Positions 666 to 57,914 of a stretch of DNA of 59,244 bases are shown here, piece after piece. The position numbers were made by a program, and so were the translations under genes. Under the pieces are notes generated by a model, which saw only the letters and a program-made list of their open reading frames with translations, did not search any database and was not told where the DNA came from. Origin of the DNA: a virus (Duplodnaviria > Caudoviricetes). The stretch lies in IMG/VR virus record IMGVR_UViG_3300042922_001463, positions 1 to 59,244 of that record; one strand, given 5' to 3'. Every line of letters begins with the position of its first letter. Position 1 is the stretch's first letter.

Positions 666-1032
666 GTCGCATATCCTCCGCGTCGTCATCGGCCTGCGCT
701 GCAATGTCGGAAAGCCGGGTGTTGAGCGCCTGCACCCGTCGGATCTGCTCGTTCTGTTCCTCGAGCAGGGCGTCGCGCTGAGCAATGGCGCGATCTCGCG
801 CGGCGACCTGCTCGCGCAACTTGTCGGCCTCGCACACGGCCTGTGCGGAGCCGACGCCGGCGAGATAGCAAGCTGCCGCGAGGCACACGATGCCGCCGGC
901 GGCGGCGAGACGTGGCAGTCTGACGAGCGGCAGCAGCGAATAGCCCAGCAGCCCGACGCCGAGCAGTGCCATGCCGCCGGCGCCGAAGCTCGGCGCCCAT
1001 GCTGGAAGGAAGGACAGGAGGGTCGCGATCAT
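523..1032 (-). CDS. i-spanin (Rz-like)
   Basis: N-terminal TM segments then long coiled coil, downstream of endolysin and holin. Confidence 0.75.
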   Translation of the reverse strand: MIATLLSFLPAWAPSFGAGGMALLGVGLLGYSLLPLVRLPRLAAAGGIVCLAAACYLAGVGSAQAVCEADKLREQVAARDRAIAQRDALLEEQNEQIRRVQALNTRLSDIAAQADDDAEDMRHEVSKLEEDLRTAGKGAGCDFSDDEYRRVRELIDHARRPAAGNRAPR

Positions 1033-10939: not shown

Positions 10940-13900
10940 TAGCCCAGATCCCCACGGCGCAGGCCGTAACGGCGTTCGACTGCCGTAGCGACGTCTCCGC
11001 CATCTTCGAATTGCCGGCTCACCTCGTCAGCGGCGACACGGCGCATCATCAGCTCGATGTCGATTCCGCCATCAGCTCCCATCGTCGCCCGCGTCCGTGC
11101 GGTGTAACCCGCCGGGGCATTGCTGACGTGTACCGAGATGCGCGGCGGCGCCATGGGCCGGCTGTTGTCATTCGCCGTGCCGCGGAACGCCCGCAGCGCA
11201 TCGGCGACACCGACGGCGCCACCGGCGTCATAGCCCCTGAGACCGCGATGCAGCGCGTCGAGGTTGCCGACGCCGGCGCTCCGGACCGCCTCCTGCGAGA
11301 ACACGAACTCGCCGCGATGCACGAGACCGGCGGCGTCGTACTTGCCGCCGGCGCCGGTGTACCCGCCGGTCGCGTAGATCGAGCCGGAGGCCGCCGCGAA
11401 ACCAGAAGAAGCCCCGGTAGATGGCGCCCCGAAGTTGAGAAATCCGGCCACGATGCTGCCCAGCGTGTTGCTACCGCTCGTGCCCGGCCCGAAGAGGCTC
11501 GCCGCCAGGTTCTGCATCGCGATGTCGAGAACGACGTTCAGTGCGCGCTTGGCGGCGTTCTCCAGCGCCTCCATGGCATCCGCGCCGTCGAGGATGTCGC
11601 TGACGAAGCCGGAGAGGAAATCGCCGGCTATGTCCCGGGTGGTGCTGAGGATGGCGTTCAGCCGCAGCGCCTGTGCCTCGAAGGAATCCAGGTCGACGGC
11701 GAGGCCGGCGGAGCGCAGCGTCGAGGCGATCTGCTGATCGATCGGGCCGCGGCCCAGCTGATCGCGCTCAAACTGGATATCCGCCATCAGGTTCAGGCGC
11801 GCCGTCAGCTCCGCCTTGCGGCCGAGCTCGGCGTTCTGCTGCTTCAGCAGTTCAAGCTGGCGTTCATCTACGGCGGTGCCGTTGGCTTCGGCCTCACGCT
11901 TCAGTTCCCAATAGCTCTGGAAGTTGGCCCGGAGCTCGGCGACCTCGCCAGCCGTCTTCCCGATGAGATCGGCTTCAAGTTCCTGCGCTGCGACGCTCTG
12001 CTGCGCGCCGAGCAGACGATCCCGACCGGCCTGGTCAAGTGCCACCGTCGCCTGCGTCAGTTCGCGCGTAGCCGCCGCCTCGGCGCGCGCGGCCGCGGTC
12101 TTGCCGTCGGCCCCTTCGGTCTCTGCCCGGTAGCGCTCAAGTGCCGCCGACGCGGCCGCACGCTGTTCCGGCGTGATCGCCTTCAGCAGGGCGATCTCAA
12201 GTTCCTGCTCACGGCGAACGACCTCGGCCTGCGGAACAAGGTTCCCATAGGCGTCGGTCATCGACCGGATTTGGTTCGTGACGCCTTCGAGGGCCCTTTG
12301 CTGCCCAGCCGTATCACCAAGACCGTGATCGAGGGCGCGCTGCAAATCAGCCTGCTGCTCCTGAAGACGGAGCAGATCCCCGTAGCGGCTGTCCCAAGAA
12401 CGAAGCGCGTCGCCGCCCGCTGTCGAGTATCGGTTGAGCTGAGCTTCGTTGGCGCGCAGCGCGGATAGTCGCCGCTGCTGCTCCATGTAATCCTCGACCA
12501 CGGCCATCTCGGCCTCGATCGCGGACTTCCTCCATCCCGCCCACGACGGAGTTTCCTCGAGATTGCGCTGCAAGTCCGCCAAGCGCTGCTGCGTCAGCGG
12601 AATCTCGAAGCTCTCACTAATGATTTTGCCAGTATTAGCAAAGCCTTCGGAGATCGAGTTCGAGACGGACTTCCACGCGCGCCCGAGGGCGGTCAACCGG
12701 CTTTCCGCCTGAGGCAGCACGCGAACCAAGCGGTCGAGCAGCACTGCCTGTGCTTCGGTGGTACGGTTCGCCGCCTCAAGCCCCTTTACGTATTGAAGCG
12801 TTGTATCATCGAGAAAATTCAGCTTGAGGTTCAGATCATCGGCACCCTTTGCCGGATCTGCGAATGCTTCTGCCAATTCTTGCCCGGCCTGCACGACGTC
12901 GCCCGTCGTGATGCTTGCATAGTTCGCAGCAGCTTCGGTTAGTCCGATAAAGAACTGCGTCCCGATACGACCGGTCGCCGCGAACGCGCCAGCAATATCG
13001 CGCGCCGCCCCTTGGGAGATGTCGGCGGCATCAGCGGCCGCGGATGCAATAGCCATAATATCTTGCACCGAGGCGCCAGTTTCACGCCCTCGGCCGGCTA
13101 GTGCGGCTTGCAGTTCCTTTTCCGCCAAGATCCAGCTGGCATAGGCGGCGGTTGCCGTCACCCCTACCGCCGCGATAGCCGTGACCGCCGCGCCCATTGG
13201 CGTGACTAGACCGGCCATCGAATTTCCCAGCGCGCGCACGCCAGCGACCACACCGCCCTCGCGGGTGGAGAGGATCTGGTAGATCTGGCCCGCCTGCGAC
13301 GCGAAGACCTGCATGGGGTTGGCCCCCATCGCCAGCATCGTGACGATGTCGTTGATTTGAAAGGACAAATTCGACAGGTCGAAGGTGCTCAGCGTGCGGC
13401 GCGTTTGCTCAAAGCCGCGAAGCATGACGATCTGCTGCGCGAAGGCGTCCTTGGTCCGCTGGATCGAAGCGGCACGCTCGGTCTCGGTCAGGATGCCGAG
13501 TTTGGCCGCCTGATTGATCTCTTGGAGATTATCGAGGTAAACGCGCTGCACCTGCGCGAGCGGCAGGTATTTCTCCCGCAGGCGCTGGATTTCGTTGCCG
13601 ACCGCGGCGATGTCGGCCGCACGCGTGTCAGTGCCGAAATCATCGCGCACGCCGAGGCGCTGATTGATGCCCGCCTGCGCCGCGGCCGATCGCGCACGTG
13701 CGAGTTCCGCTTCAGCATCCCGGGCCTTCACCACCTCGGCGATGTAGCGCTCATATTCTCGGCGCACCGAGGCGACCGCGTCCGCCTCGGCCTTCGCGCT
13801 CGCGGCACCGAGACTTCCGAAGAGCCCATTGGCCCGCTCGTTGGCGGACTGGCGAGCGGAAAACGGAGCCGACGCCCGACCAAGCCCGCTGAGCGCGCGC

Positions 13901-14655
13901 TCCGCCGCAAAGATCCGACTGCGAAGCGCCTCTTCCTGTTCAAGCTGGCGATTGATCGCGGCCTGCGCCTCGCTGACACCCCGCAAGGAGACGATTTGGT
14001 CCGCAAACGCCTGCTTGACGCGAGAGATAGCCGCGGCGCGCTCACCTTCGGTCAGGGCGCCTGTGCGCGCCGCTTCGTTGATCTCGGCGAGCGTCTCTCG
14101 GTAACGCCGCTGCTCGGCGGTGAGCGGAACATATTTCTCTCGGAGACGCTGGATCTGCTCGCCGAAGGCGGCGATGTCGGCGGCGCGGGCTTCAGTGCTG
14201 AAGTCGTTGCGAACGCCGAGCACAGCGTTGTAGCTCTGCTGCGCTGCTGCGGCCGCCGCGATGGCCTGCGTCTCCTCTTGGACGCGGCGCGTCATCTCTT
14301 GCTGCGCGGCCGAAACGATCCGATGCTTGGCATGCATCAGGTCGAGCGTCCGGGCGTATTCCTCTGCGGTCATCCGCCCGGTTTGAAGGGCACGATCCAG
14401 CTTCTGGTGCTCGCGAGCGAGCATCTGAAGGACGCGGTATTCATCATCGTAACGTCGGCGCACCGTGTCCGCCGCACGGCCGGCGTCGAGTTGGCGCTTC
14501 GTCACCGTGTCGGTGGTGAGAGCCATGGTCTCACCGGTGCGCGCGACATTGCCCTGCGCCGCCGCGACGCCCAGCAAATCGCGCTCAACCTTATCGAGAC
14601 CACGGCTCTCGCCTTGAACGACAAGGCGCCGGATCTGTTCGACGGTGGTGGCCAT
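10939..14655 (-). CDS. Tape measure protein
   Basis: About 1238 aa, Ala-rich helical; NLSFQINDIVTMLAMGANPMQVF; C-terminal ATGGYTGAGGKYDAAGLVHRGEFV. Confidence 0.93.
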   Translation of the reverse strand: MATTVEQIRRLVVQGESRGLDKVERDLLGVAAAQGNVARTGETMALTTDTVTKRQLDAGRAADTVRRRYDDEYRVLQMLAREHQKLDRALQTGRMTAEEYARTLDLMHAKHRIVSAAQQEMTRRVQEETQAIAAAAAAQQSYNAVLGVRNDFSTEARAADIAAFGEQIQRLREKYVPLTAEQRRYRETLAEINEAARTGALTEGERAAAISRVKQAFADQIVSLRGVSEAQAAINRQLEQEEALRSRIFAAERALSGLGRASAPFSARQSANERANGLFGSLGAASAKAEADAVASVRREYERYIAEVVKARDAEAELARARSAAAQAGINQRLGVRDDFGTDTRAADIAAVGNEIQRLREKYLPLAQVQRVYLDNLQEINQAAKLGILTETERAASIQRTKDAFAQQIVMLRGFEQTRRTLSTFDLSNLSFQINDIVTMLAMGANPMQVFASQAGQIYQILSTREGGVVAGVRALGNSMAGLVTPMGAAVTAIAAVGVTATAAYASWILAEKELQAALAGRGRETGASVQDIMAIASAAADAADISQGAARDIAGAFAATGRIGTQFFIGLTEAAANYASITTGDVVQAGQELAEAFADPAKGADDLNLKLNFLDDTTLQYVKGLEAANRTTEAQAVLLDRLVRVLPQAESRLTALGRAWKSVSNSISEGFANTGKIISESFEIPLTQQRLADLQRNLEETPSWAGWRKSAIEAEMAVVEDYMEQQRRLSALRANEAQLNRYSTAGGDALRSWDSRYGDLLRLQEQQADLQRALDHGLGDTAGQQRALEGVTNQIRSMTDAYGNLVPQAEVVRREQELEIALLKAITPEQRAAASAALERYRAETEGADGKTAAARAEAAATRELTQATVALDQAGRDRLLGAQQSVAAQELEADLIGKTAGEVAELRANFQSYWELKREAEANGTAVDERQLELLKQQNAELGRKAELTARLNLMADIQFERDQLGRGPIDQQIASTLRSAGLAVDLDSFEAQALRLNAILSTTRDIAGDFLSGFVSDILDGADAMEALENAAKRALNVVLDIAMQNLAASLFGPGTSGSNTLGSIVAGFLNFGAPSTGASSGFAAASGSIYATGGYTGAGGKYDAAGLVHRGEFVFSQEAVRSAGVGNLDALHRGLRGYDAGGAVGVADALRAFRGTANDNSRPMAPPRISVHVSNAPAGYTARTRATMGADGGIDIELMMRRVAADEVSRQFEDGGDVATAVERRYGLRRGDLG

Positions 14656-14722
14656 GGAGGATCCTTGCCGCGACGAAAGCGGGACAGCTAATCTCGTCAT
14701 CGTCGACCCTGGGGGAACAGCG

Positions 14723-15037
14723 ATGCGGATCTTTCTCGTCGTCTTGTTGATCGCCGTGATTGCTACAGGCGCAATTGCCTATACGCAGCTGTCTTTCTTC
14801 TCTGTTCAACCTATTGGCGCCGTGCCGGAAGGTCGAACAGTTTTGTTGCTACGAAACGGCCCGATGGAATTCATCGACAGCGCCGATGCGATATGCATGA
14901 GAACCACAGGTAGTGTGACACTACTATGTCGCGGCGCCGTATTGGGCCGCGTGTCTTCGTCACCGATATTGCTGCGACTGCCTTATCAACGATGGCTTTA
15001 CCTTATGTCGACAGATGGTCGAGAGTTTGGAGGATAG
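14723..15037 (+). CDS. Membrane-anchored/secreted moron protein
   Basis: GGGGGA RBS, signal peptide MRIFLVVLLIAV, lower GC, opposite strand to late genes. Confidence 0.7.
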   Translation: MRIFLVVLLIAVIATGAIAYTQLSFFSVQPIGAVPEGRTVLLLRNGPMEFIDSADAICMRTTGSVTLLCRGAVLGRVSSSPILLRLPYQRWLYLMSTDGREFGG

Positions 15038-15043
15038 AAAGCG

Positions 15044-15083
15044 GGCACAGGGAGACGATCTTGCGCATCGACCTCCCTGTGCC
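15044..15083 (-). terminator. 11-bp hairpin closing the pentamer array (probably bidirectional)
   Basis: GGCACAGGGAG (15044-54) / CTCCCTGTGCC (15073-83). Confidence 0.65.
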
Positions 15084-15294
15084 TGACAGCGCACGCCGCG
15101 CCTAGTCAAACCGCGACTTCTCTCGTCCCGCCTCGCCACACACAGCCCTGCCGCGCCGGCCTCGACTGGACAAGCCTTGCCCTGCCAAACCTCTCCACGT
15201 CAAACCTGGCCCCGCCTCGCCGTGCCTGCCATGCCAGAACAAGCCGTATCTAGGCTTGCCTTGCCGTGCCGCAACTCTCCTTGCCTGCCCTGCC
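15084..15294 (-). repeat. Non-coding GGY-NN pentamer array; putative guide-RNA array in three phased blocks
   Basis: Minus strand: GGCA|GGCAA GGAGA GTTGC GGCAC GGCAA GGCAA GCCTA GATAC GGCTT GTTCT GGCAT|GGCA|13 pentamers|GGCC|14 pentamers|GTCA. Confidence 0.9.
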
Positions 15295-15332
15295 GAGATC
15301 CCTGCCAGACCGATGGGCCATCGGCCTTCGCA

Positions 15333-15839
15333 CTACTCCGCCGCGATCTGCGGCTGTTCCACGCCGCCGAGGCTCTCGATAGCCGCAGCGAAAACACCGG
15401 GGTCACGGCCGACATGGATCAGCGCGGCCTGATACCGCGTGAGCCAGGCGCGCAGCGCGAGAGCCGCCTGCCGGCAATGCTCCGTCATATGCGCCGGGTC
15501 ATCCGGATCGACGAGGACATATCCTCCCCCATCCCGCCTTCCACCGATGGGAGATAGCACCATCGGCATCGGCGCTTCGCGTACCAATATTGTGCCCTTT
15601 CGGCCGATCTCCTCGACCTTGAACGACACGCGCAGGTCGCGGGCGAAGTCGCGCGCCTGTTCGACCTGATAGGCGTGCGCAGCCTTGTCCCGATCCCATT
15701 CGAACCATTCGTAGGCGGGATGTTCGACGCCCTTCTCGCGGACCTCGTCGAGAAAGAGGCCTGGGTTGAACTGGCCGTTATGACGAAGAGCGAACTCGCG
15801 GACGATCTCCTGACGGCGTTCTTTGGTGAAGCGGCTCAT
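15333..15839 (-). CDS. Partner protein of the RAMP-like gene
   Basis: HPAYEWFEWDRDKAAHAYQVEQAR motif; TGATG coupling to upstream gene. Confidence 0.8.
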   Translation of the reverse strand: MSRFTKERRQEIVREFALRHNGQFNPGLFLDEVREKGVEHPAYEWFEWDRDKAAHAYQVEQARDFARDLRVSFKVEEIGRKGTILVREAPMPMVLSPIGGRRDGGGYVLVDPDDPAHMTEHCRQAALALRAWLTRYQAALIHVGRDPGVFAAAIESLGGVEQPQIAAE

Positions 15840-16594
15840 CAGGCAGCCCTCCGCCTTACTTCGCCATGGAAGAACTCCATCAGGTCGGTCGTGTCGCGGT
15901 CGGCATATCCCGGCGCGTTCAGCGCCTCGATCTGCGCCGGCCGGCCATGGTCGGCGATGAGTTCATCCCATTCGGCGTCTTCCTCGCCCTCGCCGAGGAC
16001 CCGGAAGCTGCCGTATGCGCCCTTGCCCTTCTCCTGCCGGTAGTCGCCGACGCCGACCAGAACGCCCGCGTTGCAGAGAAGCGCCACGACCGAGGCGACT
16101 GAGAGCTGAGGCGTGATGAACTGGATCTCAACCTCCGCGCCCCATTTCGGCAGGAAGGCACGGGTCCGGACGTCCGGCGTCTTGTTGATGTCGGCCGAGC
16201 GGACGACGTCCATGCGCAGCTGCGGCACGCCATAGAGCGGCGCGAAGTCGCCCGGCATGAACAGCAGGCGCTGTGCCGACGTCTTCGTGAGGCCGGGCGT
16301 CTCCAGAGCGGCCGTGGACATGGCCGCTTTGATCGCGACAACGCGCAGGCCGAGAGCAGTCGGTCCGGCGGGGAGGATCTCGGCGCTGTCGCGAAATTCC
16401 TGCAGAGGGTCGTGCTTGATCTGCGCTCGGTCCGCCCGCCCCTTCTTCTGGCCACCGACGAGCAGCTGCTGCTTCGCCTTGTTGGCCATGCGGTTCTGGA
16501 ACAGCGGCGTGACGCCGATGACCCGCAGCTTCACCGATCCGCGGCGAAGCGGCTGCACTGTGACTTCTTCGATGTCCGAAGGCTTCTTGGCCAT
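15839..16594 (-). CDS. Cas7/RAMP-like RNA-binding protein (Vipr-like)
   Basis: GGAGA RBS; first strand LRVIGVTPLFQN; C-terminal Gly-rich loop GVLVGVGDYRQEKGKGAYGSFRV; start re-called to ATG 16594 (251 aa). Confidence 0.8.
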   Translation of the reverse strand: MAKKPSDIEEVTVQPLRRGSVKLRVIGVTPLFQNRMANKAKQQLLVGGQKKGRADRAQIKHDPLQEFRDSAEILPAGPTALGLRVVAIKAAMSTAALETPGLTKTSAQRLLFMPGDFAPLYGVPQLRMDVVRSADINKTPDVRTRAFLPKWGAEVEIQFITPQLSVASVVALLCNAGVLVGVGDYRQEKGKGAYGSFRVLGEGEEDAEWDELIADHGRPAQIEALNAPGYADRDTTDLMEFFHGEVRRRAA

Positions 16595-16605
16595 TGTCAG
16601 TCTCC

Positions 16606-16670
16606 ATGGGCATCCGGCCCGCCAAGACCTGGATGCGTACAGGTGGTCGCTCACGACCGCCGGAGCCCAT
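16606..16670 (-). ncRNA. Predicted three-way-junction RNA in the leader of the RAMP-like gene
   Basis: 12-bp outer stem (16606-18 / 16659-70, one bulge) enclosing ACCTG/CAGGT and GGTCG/CGACC hairpins; abuts the RBS. Confidence 0.5.
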
Positions 16671-16729
16671 GAAGCTCGCGGTCGCATCAAATCCCCATGG
16701 CGGCGGGGAATTCGTGATGTCGGGTGTTC

Positions 16730-17392
16730 TCAGCTCGCCAGAGCGAGCCGCTCGATGTCGTTGATCAGGGCGATGGTCGCGTTGCAGTCGTCGCCGGTCC
16801 AGTTGCTGGCATCTTGCCGGCGGACGACGGCGACCTTCACCGCGAGATCGGAGAGAGAGGTCGCCGGCGTGGTGAGGATTTCGTCCTCGATCGCGCAGAG
16901 CGCCTCGTACGCGGTGATGGAGGTTTCCTCGGCGGCGTCTAGGCCGATCTCATCGCGCAGCCGCTTGAGGTCGCTCTCCCACCGACGGACGGCATCTGCC
17001 CTCGCCTGCGCCTTGTCAGCGAGCTCGTGCCAGTTCCTCTTTCGGTACTTGGCGGCCAGGCCTTCCCATTGGGCGATGGTGCCAACGGTACGATACCGGC
17101 CATCAGGCTGACGCTCTTCCGACCAGCGGGCAGAGAACATGAAGCCGTTCGGCACGTATGCCTCTCCCGGCCTTATGGGCTTCAGGTCGGCGTAGAGCCG
17201 CCCTACCCTCTCTGCCTCGTCGCTGGTGCTCTCGTAAGCGGCCAACGCCGCATCGAACTGCGGCTTCAGCATCGCGATAGCGCTGCTGGCCATCGCTGGC
17301 AGCGGGATCGTCAGTCCAGCCGCCACCCCGGCGCCAAGGCCGGTGAGGAACCGGCGCCGGGATGTGTTAGTCCTTGTCGTAGCTTCGACCAT
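16730..17392 (-). CDS. Hypothetical phage protein with Tat-like N-terminus
   Basis: SRRRFLTGLGAG; C-terminal ILTTPATSLSDLAVKV motif; GGAG RBS. Confidence 0.7.
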   Translation of the reverse strand: MVEATTRTNTSRRRFLTGLGAGVAAGLTIPLPAMASSAIAMLKPQFDAALAAYESTSDEAERVGRLYADLKPIRPGEAYVPNGFMFSARWSEERQPDGRYRTVGTIAQWEGLAAKYRKRNWHELADKAQARADAVRRWESDLKRLRDEIGLDAAEETSITAYEALCAIEDEILTTPATSLSDLAVKVAVVRRQDASNWTGDDCNATIALINDIERLALAS

Positions 17393-17930: not shown

Positions 17931-18494
17931 CTAATGGGCGGCGACCACCCGAAGCGGGGCCGGCTTCGACGCCGACTGCGAACGATACTGGACCGTGGCC
18001 GCGCGTGCGATCGCTGCCTCCACGCCCCGATTGGTCAGCTTCGCAGCGTATCTTGGCATGAGTTCGGCCGTCTCGGGCCACCGCAGGAACAGCGCGACCA
18101 ATCCGCTCGCCAGCGCCGTCTCGAACGCATCGCCGAGATCTGGCCGGGCGGTCCGCATCTGCGTCAGGTCGTCGAAGAACCTCTGATCCTCCGCGCTGGT
18201 CGCTCGCAGCTTCGCGGTCGGCTTGCACAGCTTTTCCGCCAGGATAGTCGCCTGCTTCCTGTCCGCTGAGATGTCGCTGATGGCGAGCAGCATCTCGACC
18301 GCGCTGGGAACCGCGGCCGGATCGGTGACGAACTTCTCCATTGCCTCGTAGTGCTGGCGGAGGTTGTCGGCGGCTGCCTTGTAGCGGACGGCAGCGGCGC
18401 GCGCGTGCTCACGTCGCGTGGTGATCACGTGCCAGCCCAGCGAGATGATGGCGGCTACGAAGACATAGGCCCACATATCATCCATTTGCGGCAT
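17931..18494 (-). CDS. Membrane-anchored moron protein
   Basis: N-terminal TM (WAYVFVAAIISLGW) then helical domain. Confidence 0.65.
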   Translation of the reverse strand: MPQMDDMWAYVFVAAIISLGWHVITTRREHARAAAVRYKAAADNLRQHYEAMEKFVTDPAAVPSAVEMLLAISDISADRKQATILAEKLCKPTAKLRATSAEDQRFFDDLTQMRTARPDLGDAFETALASGLVALFLRWPETAELMPRYAAKLTNRGVEAAIARAATVQYRSQSASKPAPLRVVAAH

Positions 18495-18844
18495 CGTTTT
18501 CGTCTCGTCTTTCGAGGGCCCTATTGCCAGAACCCTGTGTCCGCGACAACCTTTTCCGAGCCTTCTCGCGCACGGCGGCGCCGCGTTCGCGTTCAATCTT
18601 CTCAACTTCGAGGGCCGCCAGCCGTTCCTTATAGGCGTCCGACCGGTCCCTTCTCCAGAAATAGGCCCCGCCGAGGAAGACGACAATCGTCACCGCGAGA
18701 TATTGATCCAGCCCGGCGCGGATTAGCACGCCAGTGAAGACCAACAGTGATCACGACAAACGCGTCTAGGCCATCCAGTCCGAGCTTGAGCATCGGGCCT
18801 AGGATGCTCTTCAGTAGGTCCACGTCGGCCCTCGGCTCCGGCAT
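18478..18844 (-). pseudogene. Frameshifted membrane protein gene
   Basis: ORF MPEPRAD...AFVVI and ORF LLVFTGVLIRAG... join with a one-base shift at about 18748. Confidence 0.55.
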
Positions 18845-18959: not shown

Positions 18960-19691
18960 CTAGGCGGGATTGGACGGGCTGAGATTCGTGCCGGCGACGG
19001 CCTCGGTGAGTGCCGCCGACATCTTCGAGATCAGCGTATGGAAGCGCTCGAAGGCGTCCGGCCCCGTGATCCCGAGCCGCTCCGCATAGCGGTCGATAGC
19101 AGTGAATGGGATGCCGCCATGCGGGCCGGGCGTCCGGTCCGACAGCAGCGTCCAGAACGCCTTCCATTCGAGCTCGAGGTGATCCGCCAGCGCCGGCCGC
19201 TCGGCGAGCGCCTTCGGCGTCACCCCCTCCTCGCGGCCGAGGTCTTCCAGCCACTGCAGCTGGTCGCCCCATGCCACCATCCAGCGCAGCATGGCGGTCA
19301 GGTTGCTCGCATCGGCTTCCAGCGAGGCAACGCCGCGATCGGCGACGATCCCGCCGGCCGCGACGCAGGCGCCGGCCAGATACTCGCCGATCTCCGGATC
19401 GGTCAGCAGGTCGACGGTGCAGGGTTCGTCCAGGCTCCAGTCGACGACGACAGTGCGGACGAGCACCTCCGCGAGGATCCTCGCCGAGACTTCCGGCGGC
19501 ATCTTCTCCTTGTGCTCGTCCGGGAGCTCCCGAACGAGTTCGCCGCGCAGCTTCGCCGCCTCGGTATTGCGCAGGCTGCGGGCCTTGACGTCGAGGCTGA
19601 TGCCGAGCTCGTCGAGAACGATGCCCTTCACCCACGCCCCACCGGCGGCCTTGACCTTTGCCGCCCTGAGATCACCGACCTTCAGTTTCAC
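18960..19691 (-). CDS. Tail assembly chaperone, G- and T-like parts in one frame
   Basis: After tail tube; VVDWS in G-like half; WKAFWTL...IPFTAIDRYA T-like half. Confidence 0.75.
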   Translation of the reverse strand: MKLKVGDLRAAKVKAAGGAWVKGIVLDELGISLDVKARSLRNTEAAKLRGELVRELPDEHKEKMPPEVSARILAEVLVRTVVVDWSLDEPCTVDLLTDPEIGEYLAGACVAAGGIVADRGVASLEADASNLTAMLRWMVAWGDQLQWLEDLGREEGVTPKALAERPALADHLELEWKAFWTLLSDRTPGPHGGIPFTAIDRYAERLGITGPDAFERFHTLISKMSAALTEAVAGTNLSPSNPA

Positions 19692-19896: not shown

Positions 19897-20823
19897 TCAG
19901 GCGACGGCGCGCGTGATCTTCACCGAGCAGGCCTCGGTGGCGTCGAGGACGGCGCGGTACGGAATCGACATCATTACGTCGTCGTTGTTGCCGCCGATCT
20001 GCTTGGCGCCGTCGAGGAAAATGATCTTGGGCAGCAGGACCGTGTATTTCTTGCCGCTGTCCTTGCCGATGTTGAAGCTCAGTGCGCCGCCGCCGTGGTC
20101 GAGCACCGCCTGGTAGAGCGCCTGGCTCTCGAAATAGGCCTCAAGGGTGCCGGTGCTGTCGAAGCGGCCCGCGCCGAACTCCTCCGTATACAGCGAGCCG
20201 ACCACGGGCCGTTCGCGGAGGTTGTTGTTGAACTCGAGGTTGAGGCTCCGCACCTTCGGCACCGGATTGAGACCGGCGACGGCCAGGGCCGCGACATGAG
20301 CGGAAGACGTCAGGATCGGCTCGGTCGTCGCCGCCGTATAGGTGGCGCCGGTGACGATCGCCGAGGCGAGCGTCTCCTTCTGGCCGACCAGTCCGACCGA
20401 ACCGGTGACCTTCGCGCGCGCCGCGATGGCGAGGGAGAAGGTGTTGACGGTGCAGCCGGTATAGCGGTGGAAGCTGTCGGTGGCGCCGAGCTCCAGCGTC
20501 TCTTCCACGGTGAAATACTTCGGGGTGATGCCGTTCTTCAGGACGTTGGTGGTCCAGGTGCCGCGCAGCGCCGCCTCGAGCATGTCGTCGAAGGTGCTGT
20601 AGGAGAATTCGAACGGATAGGCGCCGCTGACGCCGAGGCCCAGCAGACCTTCGTCGGGCACGTTGCGGTCAGCCCGGAGCTCGTCGCTGGTCTGCGTCGT
20701 CTTGTTGGTGCGCGGCCCGCCGCCGGTGGTGCGGAAGGTCTTGAAGGTCGGGGTGGCCGGCGTGGCGCCATACGTCGCCTCGGCGACATAGGCGATCCGC
20801 GCCTCGCTCGAATTGGCAGGCAT
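19897..20823 (-). CDS. Major tail tube protein
   Basis: IAYVAEATYGATP, SDELRADR, GTLEAYF motifs. Confidence 0.88.
   Translation of the reverse strand: MPANSSEARIAYVAEATYGATPATPTFKTFRTTGGGPRTNKTTQTSDELRADRNVPDEGLLGLGVSGAYPFEFSYSTFDDMLEAALRGTWTTNVLKNGITPKYFTVEETLELGATDSFHRYTGCTVNTFSLAIAARAKVTGSVGLVGQKETLASAIVTGATYTAATTEPILTSSAHVAALAVAGLNPVPKVRSLNLEFNNNLRERPVVGSLYTEEFGAGRFDSTGTLEAYFESQALYQAVLDHGGGALSFNIGKDSGKKYTVLLPKIIFLDGAKQIGGNNDDVMMSIPYRAVLDATEACSVKITRAVA

Positions 20824-56587: not shown

Positions 56588-57914
<1,327 letters not shown>

Follow-up and report, generated by a model that had tools for sequence, protein, structure and literature searches.

A probable VIPR locus with a staggered guide array in the tail-gene block of a soil siphophage, its guides likely aimed at virion genes of sibling phages

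VIPR (Viral Interference Programmable Repeat), first described in 2026, combines a minimal RAMP protein, Vipr, with an accessory gene, vap, and with vrRNAs, guides made of 9–16 repeats of a constant GGY and a variable NN dinucleotide followed by a 3′ tail (available sections of bioRxiv 10.64898/2026.04.26.720920). The same sections state that the NN dinucleotides read double-stranded DNA by a ‘1-nt skip’, the skipped bases being overwhelmingly codon wobble positions, and that targets lie on either strand and are free of a protospacer adjacent motif (PAM-free). Natural targets were called there at ≥80% NN match without gaps, self matches all fell below 80% in the clades examined, and the legend of Fig. 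S18 reports staggered arrays, with a 1-nt overlap from one vrRNA to the next. One Vipr protomer is described per repeat, with GGY buried and five RNA bases for three DNA bases, and H17, R138, D177, W178 and R179 are given as the GGY-reading residues of the Vipr protein of phage SUSP1 (available sections of bioRxiv 10.64898/2026.04.26.720927). A third preprint reports that wobble skipping prevents mutational escape and that guides match self less well than rivals (available sections of 10.64898/2026.10.15.759431). In the accessible parts of the 2026 bioRxiv preprints, 664 VIPR loci are catalogued, with a satellite recombinase, lysis-lysogeny regulators and other VIPR loci named as targets. Here we describe a probable VIPR locus in a virus of the Caudoviricetes, IMG/VR record IMGVR_UViG_3300042922_001463, a complete virus record of 59,244 bp which was analysed over its whole length and is called the window below. 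An initial annotation had noticed that a block of regularly spaced dinucleotides partially matches the tail-tube gene of the same phage in codon phase, and had proposed the tube gene of a related competitor phage as the true target.

The array lies on the minus strand at 15290..15093. Its best 100-nt stretch carries G at each fifth base in 20/20 consecutive units, and this period-5 run of G is the sole example within the window. Applied over all five registers, a GGY-NN caller delineated three runs in the array, all on the minus strand. Run 1 (guide 1, 15226..15290) has 13 GGY-NN units, of which units 2–12 are the 11 pentamers first noticed (block 1), found at period 5 by a script varying the spacing (minus strand, plus coordinates 15282..15231). 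The NN series of run 1 starts with CA, continues with the leading two bases of the block 1 pentamers (AA GA GC AC AA AA TA AC TT CT AT) and ends with AG. The third base is G in 11/11 block 1 pentamers, and over run 1 the first G alone of GGY is invariant. Run 2 (guide 2, 15157..15226) has 14 units in a shifted register, and run 3 (guide 3, 15093..15157) has about 13 units and is more degenerate. A vrRNA is taken here as at least 4 tandem 5-nt units, typically 9–16, of constant GGY (or a related consensus) and variable NN. Neighbouring runs overlap by exactly 1 nt, run 2 sharing base 15226 with run 1 and run 3 sharing base 15157 with run 2, which is exactly the 1-nt guide overlap given for staggered arrays in the Fig. 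S18 legend (10.64898/2026.04.26.720920). Judged by its sequence, the array is likely a staggered vrRNA array of a VIPR system; this degree of confidence is a joint one, which also covers the aim of the guides at tube, portal and tape-measure genes of sibling phages presented below.

A stem-loop stands directly 3′ of the array (15044..15083, minus strand; minimum free energy −44.6 kcal/mol for 15110..15000, z −3.7). In L006, a contig of a related phage with an array of its own, a stem of different sequence occupies the corresponding place (z −4.4). The window stem-loop could be a 3′ tail or a terminator; a promoter and terminator scan of 14400–16000 detected no promoter-like site and did not call the array hairpin as a terminator. 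Rfam gave no match at 14600–15450 at E up to 10, and a tRNA only over the whole window, while blastn of 14700–15900 against 50,697 phage records gave no match. Outside the array, a 7-unit GGY-NN-like run was seen at 975..941 (minus strand); it is probably no solo guide, because short runs of this kind are expected by chance (5.9 per shuffled window).

Several other readings of the array were considered. A pentapeptide-repeat coding region was rejected: no minus-strand open reading frame (ORF) of ≥80 aa runs across the array, and its NNG triplets include TAG. Early readings as a TRAP-like protein-binding RNA, as two-quartet G-quadruplexes, as a Rho-binding rut site in the C-rich plus strand, as a decayed pentanucleotide microsatellite, or as R-loop, Chi or primase-site arrays were all dropped after the Vipr gene was identified.

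This gene (15842..16594, minus strand) encodes a 251-aa protein, a minimal Cas7-like RAMP whose G-loop reads GVGDYRQ, as indicated by profile and structure matches. A profile of 12 array-linked homologues matched the SUSP1 Vipr protein (PDB 36pp_D) with E 1.6e-27, profile positions 20–205 aligning with positions 4–190 of the chain (186/207 profile positions). The single window sequence gave a weak match to 36pp_D (E 0.035). For the AlphaFold2 model of this protein (predicted local distance difference test, pLDDT, 82.8), the top Foldseek matches were Csm3/Cas7 of type III CRISPR complexes, with 31 matches at E≤1e-3 (6ifn_F, E 4e-5), suggesting the same fold. The GVGDYRQ loop aligns with GVGDWRP of SUSP1, D and R being kept and W changed to Y, and an Arg-rich thumb stretch is conserved in the alignment of the homologues. 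On this profile evidence the product of 15842..16594 is a Vipr homologue.

The candidate vap gene (15333..15839, minus strand, 168 aa) overlaps the vipr stop, and its homologues adjoin vipr and arrays in 7 other loci. It belongs to no Pfam, NCBIfam or PADLOC family and, unlike the SUSP1 accessory gene, is without detectable similarity to anything in PDB: no sequence match was obtained below E 0.3, and the best Foldseek match of its model (pLDDT 65.6) had E 1.4. Both genes and the array are on the minus strand, with the genes upstream of the array, inside the tail-gene block between the tail assembly chaperone region (PF23812, ORF 18960..19691) and the tape-measure gene (PF06791).

The closest described relative is the type II VIPR of SUSP1 (10.64898/2026.04.26.720920, 10.64898/2026.04.26.720927, 10.64898/2026.10.15.759431; PDB 36pp), with which the locus shares a homologous Vipr, a guide of GGY-NN pentamers and carriage by a phage. 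Likewise similar would be the NN-x reading of the target with the skipped base at the codon wobble, and predicted targets in competing mobile elements with self scoring below non-self. The window has a staggered array with one terminal hairpin, whereas SUSP1, a Vipr + vap1 system, has separate vrRNAs of ~100 nt, each pseudoknot-tailed. Also unlike SUSP1, run 1 of the window keeps the first G only, and its Vipr carries Asn for His17 and Tyr for Trp178. The host range is alphaproteobacterial in the window, unlike that of the Escherichia phage SUSP1, and the guides are predicted to hit structural genes of near-identical siblings (tube, tape measure, portal), unlike the targets reported in the accessible parts of the preprints.

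The Cas7/Csm3 backbone of class 1 CRISPR complexes shares with Vipr the RAMP fold, the glycine-rich loop and the thumb, as suggested by the Foldseek matches above, and resembles it in having one protomer per guide repeat unit and flipped bases. Unlike class 1 CRISPR, the window locus is without repeat-spacer array and without cas genes, and VIPR pairing involves 2 bases per 5 nt of guide and 3 nt of target, against 5 of 6 on both strands in class 1 CRISPR. TRAP of Bacillus recognizes RNA carrying 11 triplets with spacers of 2–3 nt. The likeness to TRAP is that a conserved triplet recurs about every 5 nt in an RNA to which a protein oligomer binds; the locus differs in having no TRAP homologue, and here the constant triplet would be buried and the spacers would carry the information.

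At least 119 stretches came back from a search of IMG/VR for 18 G's spaced at period 5, and the array counts that follow are lower bounds. Among the matches listed, about 25 loci have arrays that pair a variable dinucleotide with constant GGC or GGT, several of which contain stops in all frames. A homologue of the Vipr encoded in the window ORF 15839..16690 adjoins NNGGC arrays at 13 or more IMG/VR loci. Other constant triplets were also seen in period-5 arrays, among them NNGCG-like in L063 and L132 and NNGCC-like in L030; these may be variant vrRNA consensus types.

We then compared guide 1 with the tail tube gene of the window (19897..20823, minus strand, 308 aa; PF18906, Phage_tube_2, E 5e-49; phrog_290, E 2.8e-73). 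Read with one skipped base against 20064..20032 (minus strand), block 1 matches 16/22 bases, with 7/11 dinucleotides exact and the skipped base at the wobble position, so that the coordinates and counts of the initial annotation were reproduced exactly. This own copy of the guide-1 site (20032..20064) covers tube codons 254–264 (nt 760–792, phase 0, KDSGKKYTVLL). It is the top-scoring block 1 site in the window on both strands (runner-up 14) and scores 16/26 over all 13 units of run 1. At ≤3 mismatches, neither the NN-x pattern nor the concatenated 22-mer had a match in the window. The mechanism proposed at the outset, two of three bases being read, is the published one and agrees with the 1-nt skip rule; that wobble skipping blunts synonymous escape had also been proposed and is stated in the available preprint text (10.64898/2026.10.15.759431).

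In the window, 16/22 or more was reached by 8.1% of guides with permuted dinucleotides and by 7.3% of guides with permuted bases (1000 trials each) and, three blocks having been tried, the in-window chance of such a match comes to about 1 in 5. Little weight is added by the codon phase: 348/500 best matches of shuffled guides also place the skipped base at the GC-richest (wobble) codon phase, a preference which arises because an AT-rich guide meets a 66% GC genome. In the window alone, comparison of guides 1, 2 and 3 with their shuffles gave P = 0.28, 1.0 and 0.84. Thus the guide 1 match within the window alone is not beyond chance, and it is significant only together with evidence from outside the window.

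This evidence came from 11 fetched loci with tube homologues, among which L001 and L006 are one phage and L003 and L007 are one phage. At the aligned tube site, block 1 scored 19/22 in L001, L006 and L008, 18/22 in L002 and L004, 17/22 in L010, 16/22 in L003, L007 and L009, and 12/22 in L011 and L012. Compared with the 16/22 (73%) of the window itself, the score was higher in 6/11 homologous loci, equal in 3/11 and lower in 2/11; homologues matching better than self, as foreseen, were thus found. All sites scoring ≥16/22 in 275 kb (10/10) were the one homologous tube site, and 19/22 anywhere in the 275 kb was reached by 5/1500 shuffled guides. The ungapped local score of guide 1 with all 13 units gave P = 0.017. 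At the protein level, 16/120 homologues fitted the guide-encoded peptide better than self, the best at 9/11 (KDANKKYTFLF and KDAGKKYTFLF), and 9/11 was reached by 1/3000 shuffled guides against 121 tube proteins. These comparisons support guide 1 being aimed at tail-tube codons 254–264 as carried by sibling phages.

The related phage L006 provided a second, independently scored array. Its array (L006:14356-14530) is orthologous to the window array 15290..15093, with ~80% identity and three staggered runs; they differ by whole-unit indels, 15 nt and 5 nt long, and by a 1-nt indel where two runs meet. Conservation between the two phages is much higher in block 1 than in runs 2 and 3. Guide 1 of L006 differs from that of the window at unit 5 (AA for AC), which changes T to N, the commonest residue in that column of the tube family (56/121). 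With this change, 8 consecutive units (16/16) match the tube genes of L002, L003, L004, L007 and L008 (P = 0/150), which are of the KDANKKYT type. Similarly, 11 consecutive units (22/22) of L006 guide 3 match the tape-measure gene of L008 (P = 0/150). Together with the 6/11 loci above self, the 16/16 match of L006 guide 1 on siblings supports the proposal of a competitor tube gene as the target.

For guides 2 and 3 of the window, the initial annotation had found no comparable match. This holds within the window, but comparable matches exist in L008, a phage without array whose tube protein is 96% identical to that of the window. The best target of guide 2 is in the portal gene of L008 (L008:20591-20631, PF04860; 22/28, local-score P = 0/300). 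Units 1–12 match there at 22/24, and a degenerate 12-unit pattern of guide 2 retrieved the L008 contig alone in all of IMG/VR. Guide 3 matches best in the L008 tape-measure gene (21/26, 81%; local P = 0.033) and scores 20/26 on that of L004. Self scores are 17/28 for guide 2 and 18/26 for guide 3, the own copy of the guide-3 site lying in the tape-measure gene at 13103..13140 (minus strand, ASWILAEKELQAA). All three guide matches in L008 (3/3) are in phase 0, on the sense strand and in long ORFs. Counted over locally aligned units, guide 1 (86% in L008, L001 and L006), guide 2 (22/24 in L008) and guide 3 (81% in L008) all lie above the 80% level. Guides 2 and 3 are therefore, under the same joint grading as the array itself, likely to be aimed in the same manner at the portal and tape-measure genes of a VIPR-less sibling. 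As a separate observation, the portal gene of the L008 provirus (L008:19832-20923, plus strand) is located ~4.4 kb downstream of the tape-measure gene in the same orientation, and is only 30% identical to the window portal; this gene may belong to a second element beside the prophage.

We further examined how self differs from siblings. Tube residues 256–257 are SG in the window, TT in L006, AN in L008, P0001 and P0002, and TN in P0003, in proteins that are 94–97% identical. The self mismatches to guide 1 fall on the read bases of codons 256–257 and of two later codons. The tape-measure site reads ILA in both array-bearing phages, VNG in L008 and VAG in L004. Array-bearing phages thus differ from VIPR-less relatives exactly at read bases of the targeted codons, in tube and tape measure. 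In line with the anticipated sparing of self by mismatches, self scored lower for all three guides: 16/22 (73%), 17/28 and 18/26 are each below the best sibling scores, and the self site of guide 1 is below target grade since 73% is under the 80% level of the preprints. The pattern fits self-sparing by non-synonymous differences at read positions. The differences between self and siblings may equally represent an ordinary variable loop with linked inheritance of the module and the tape-measure 5′ end, as the window and L006 are homologous from the array on into the tape-measure gene. A more specific origin, in which guides derive from the alleles that siblings carry of these structural genes and carriers recode their own copies at read positions, appears to us improbable. 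If guides arose by using coding DNA as a template for GGY-NN units, this would amount to a primitive kind of spacer acquisition, a question left open by the available text of the preprints. Alternatively, rival alleles and self-escape would co-evolve without acquisition machinery.

A number of observations weigh against a VIPR array with guides directed at siblings. Concerning the components, 5/11 block 1 GGY motifs are degenerate (GTT, GCC, GAT, GTT, GGA), and Asn occupies the column of the window Vipr aligned with His17 of SUSP1 Vipr. Concerning the guides, guide 1 taken over all 13 units, which is the way of scoring guides in the October preprint (10.64898/2026.10.15.759431, available sections), reaches 19/26 (73%) on siblings with P = 0.08, and the loci used for the nulls had been gathered around tube homologues. 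The exact 11-unit pattern had 0 matches in IMG/VR and 0 in JGI metagenome contigs and, with 9/11 as the best of 120 homologues, the exact target peptide predicted initially was not recovered. Among 401 family genomes, 2 places had ≤3 mismatches, against 1 for the reversed-pattern control; one of the two is a tube gene (NATTKKYTVLI). The 8-unit pattern occurs at at least 115 loci, mostly on low-GC contigs; no guide 1 target above 19/22 was found, and none among the 8-unit-pattern matches listed. In L006, guide 2 has no match above chance, and self-sparing is marginal because guide 1 scores 16/20 = 80% on its own tube gene.

Guide 1 might instead be a relic, once perfect on an extinct or unsampled tube allele (like KDATKKYTFL[IM]) and now non-working, with ≥3 mismatches to every known relative. 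The best known match of 19/22 and the partly degenerate GGY motifs of block 1 agree with this, as does the observation that the guide residues each occur singly in columns of the tube family (A 55/121, F 61/121) and never all together. Against it, conservation between the window and L006 is highest in block 1, and constraint on this block is suggested because the remaining array diverged, with indels. Besides, ≥80% is treated as target-grade in the accessible parts of the preprints, and the sampling of soil phages is thin. We consider a relic unlikely.

A coincidence would leave the VIPR array real and the resemblance between guide 1 and the tube gene fortuitous, an AT-rich guide meeting Lys/Tyr-rich codons, with the true target elsewhere. 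Several numbers favour it: within the window 7–8% of shuffled guides reach 16/22 and 70% of their best matches are also in wobble phase, the 13-unit sibling score has P = 0.08 and no perfect target was found. The concentration of 10/10 sites of ≥16/22 in 275 kb on one homologous tube site, the 5/1500 shuffles reaching 19/22 and the 1/3000 at protein level all argue against chance. So do the change of L006 unit 5 (AC to AA) toward the commonest family residue, giving 16/16, and the matches of guides 2 and 3 to the same sibling contig (L008). Coincidence is in our judgement very improbable. Self-regulation, with guide 1 binding its own tube gene weakly (16/22) and tuning late-gene expression without aiming at rivals, could invoke a site that is present, and best, in its own genome and a vipr-vap-array module inside the tail operon, but it is extremely improbable given that siblings beat self at all three guides, that self reaches only 73% (62% over 13 units) when the self matches in the available sections of 10.64898/2026.04.26.720920 are all <80%, and that within the window no guide beats its shuffles.

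With guides directed at sibling virion genes as the preferred explanation, the following scheme can be proposed. The module is embedded among the tail genes of a siphophage (59 kb) with hosts of the Xanthobacteraceae type, and its array would be transcribed and processed into vrRNAs. By analogy with the published system, Vipr protomers would coat the RNA, one per GGY-NN unit, with GGY buried and each NN dinucleotide presented. The resulting filament would bind double-stranded DNA as NN-x-NN-x, each third base being skipped, and once bound may silence transcription of the target gene. Guides 1–3 would point at the tube, portal and tape-measure genes of siblings, own copies scoring lower, and 3 mismatches in 22 may be tolerated.

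Several further features lie around the module. Between the vrRNA hairpin and the tape-measure start, ORF 14723..15037 (plus strand, 104 aa) has a hydrophobic N-terminus, is oriented opposite to the late genes and belongs to no family; its counterpart in the L006 contig is 95% identical, and no further relative was found in IMG/VR. Two ORFs of unknown function, 16730..17392 and 17931..18686 (both minus strand), separate the tail assembly chaperone from vipr. With them, the interval from tube to tape measure is unusually long (~5.2 kb); the twin-arginine signal motif TIGR01409 is present in 16730..17392 (E 2.4e-4). A tRNA-Asp gene towards the right end of the record (57838..57914, minus strand) possibly marks an integration site or is a phage-borne tRNA.

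Systems of this kind are already on record in the 2026 preprints, and the locus reveals no new kind. It would represent a natural VIPR example in a soil alphaproteobacterial phage, distinguished by a staggered array, by three guides that all appear to point at virion genes of near-identical siblings, and by own genes of the carrier that differ at just the read bases. As such it may serve as a compact test bed for the mismatch tolerance of NN reading, the avoidance of self-silencing and the co-evolution of guides and targets.

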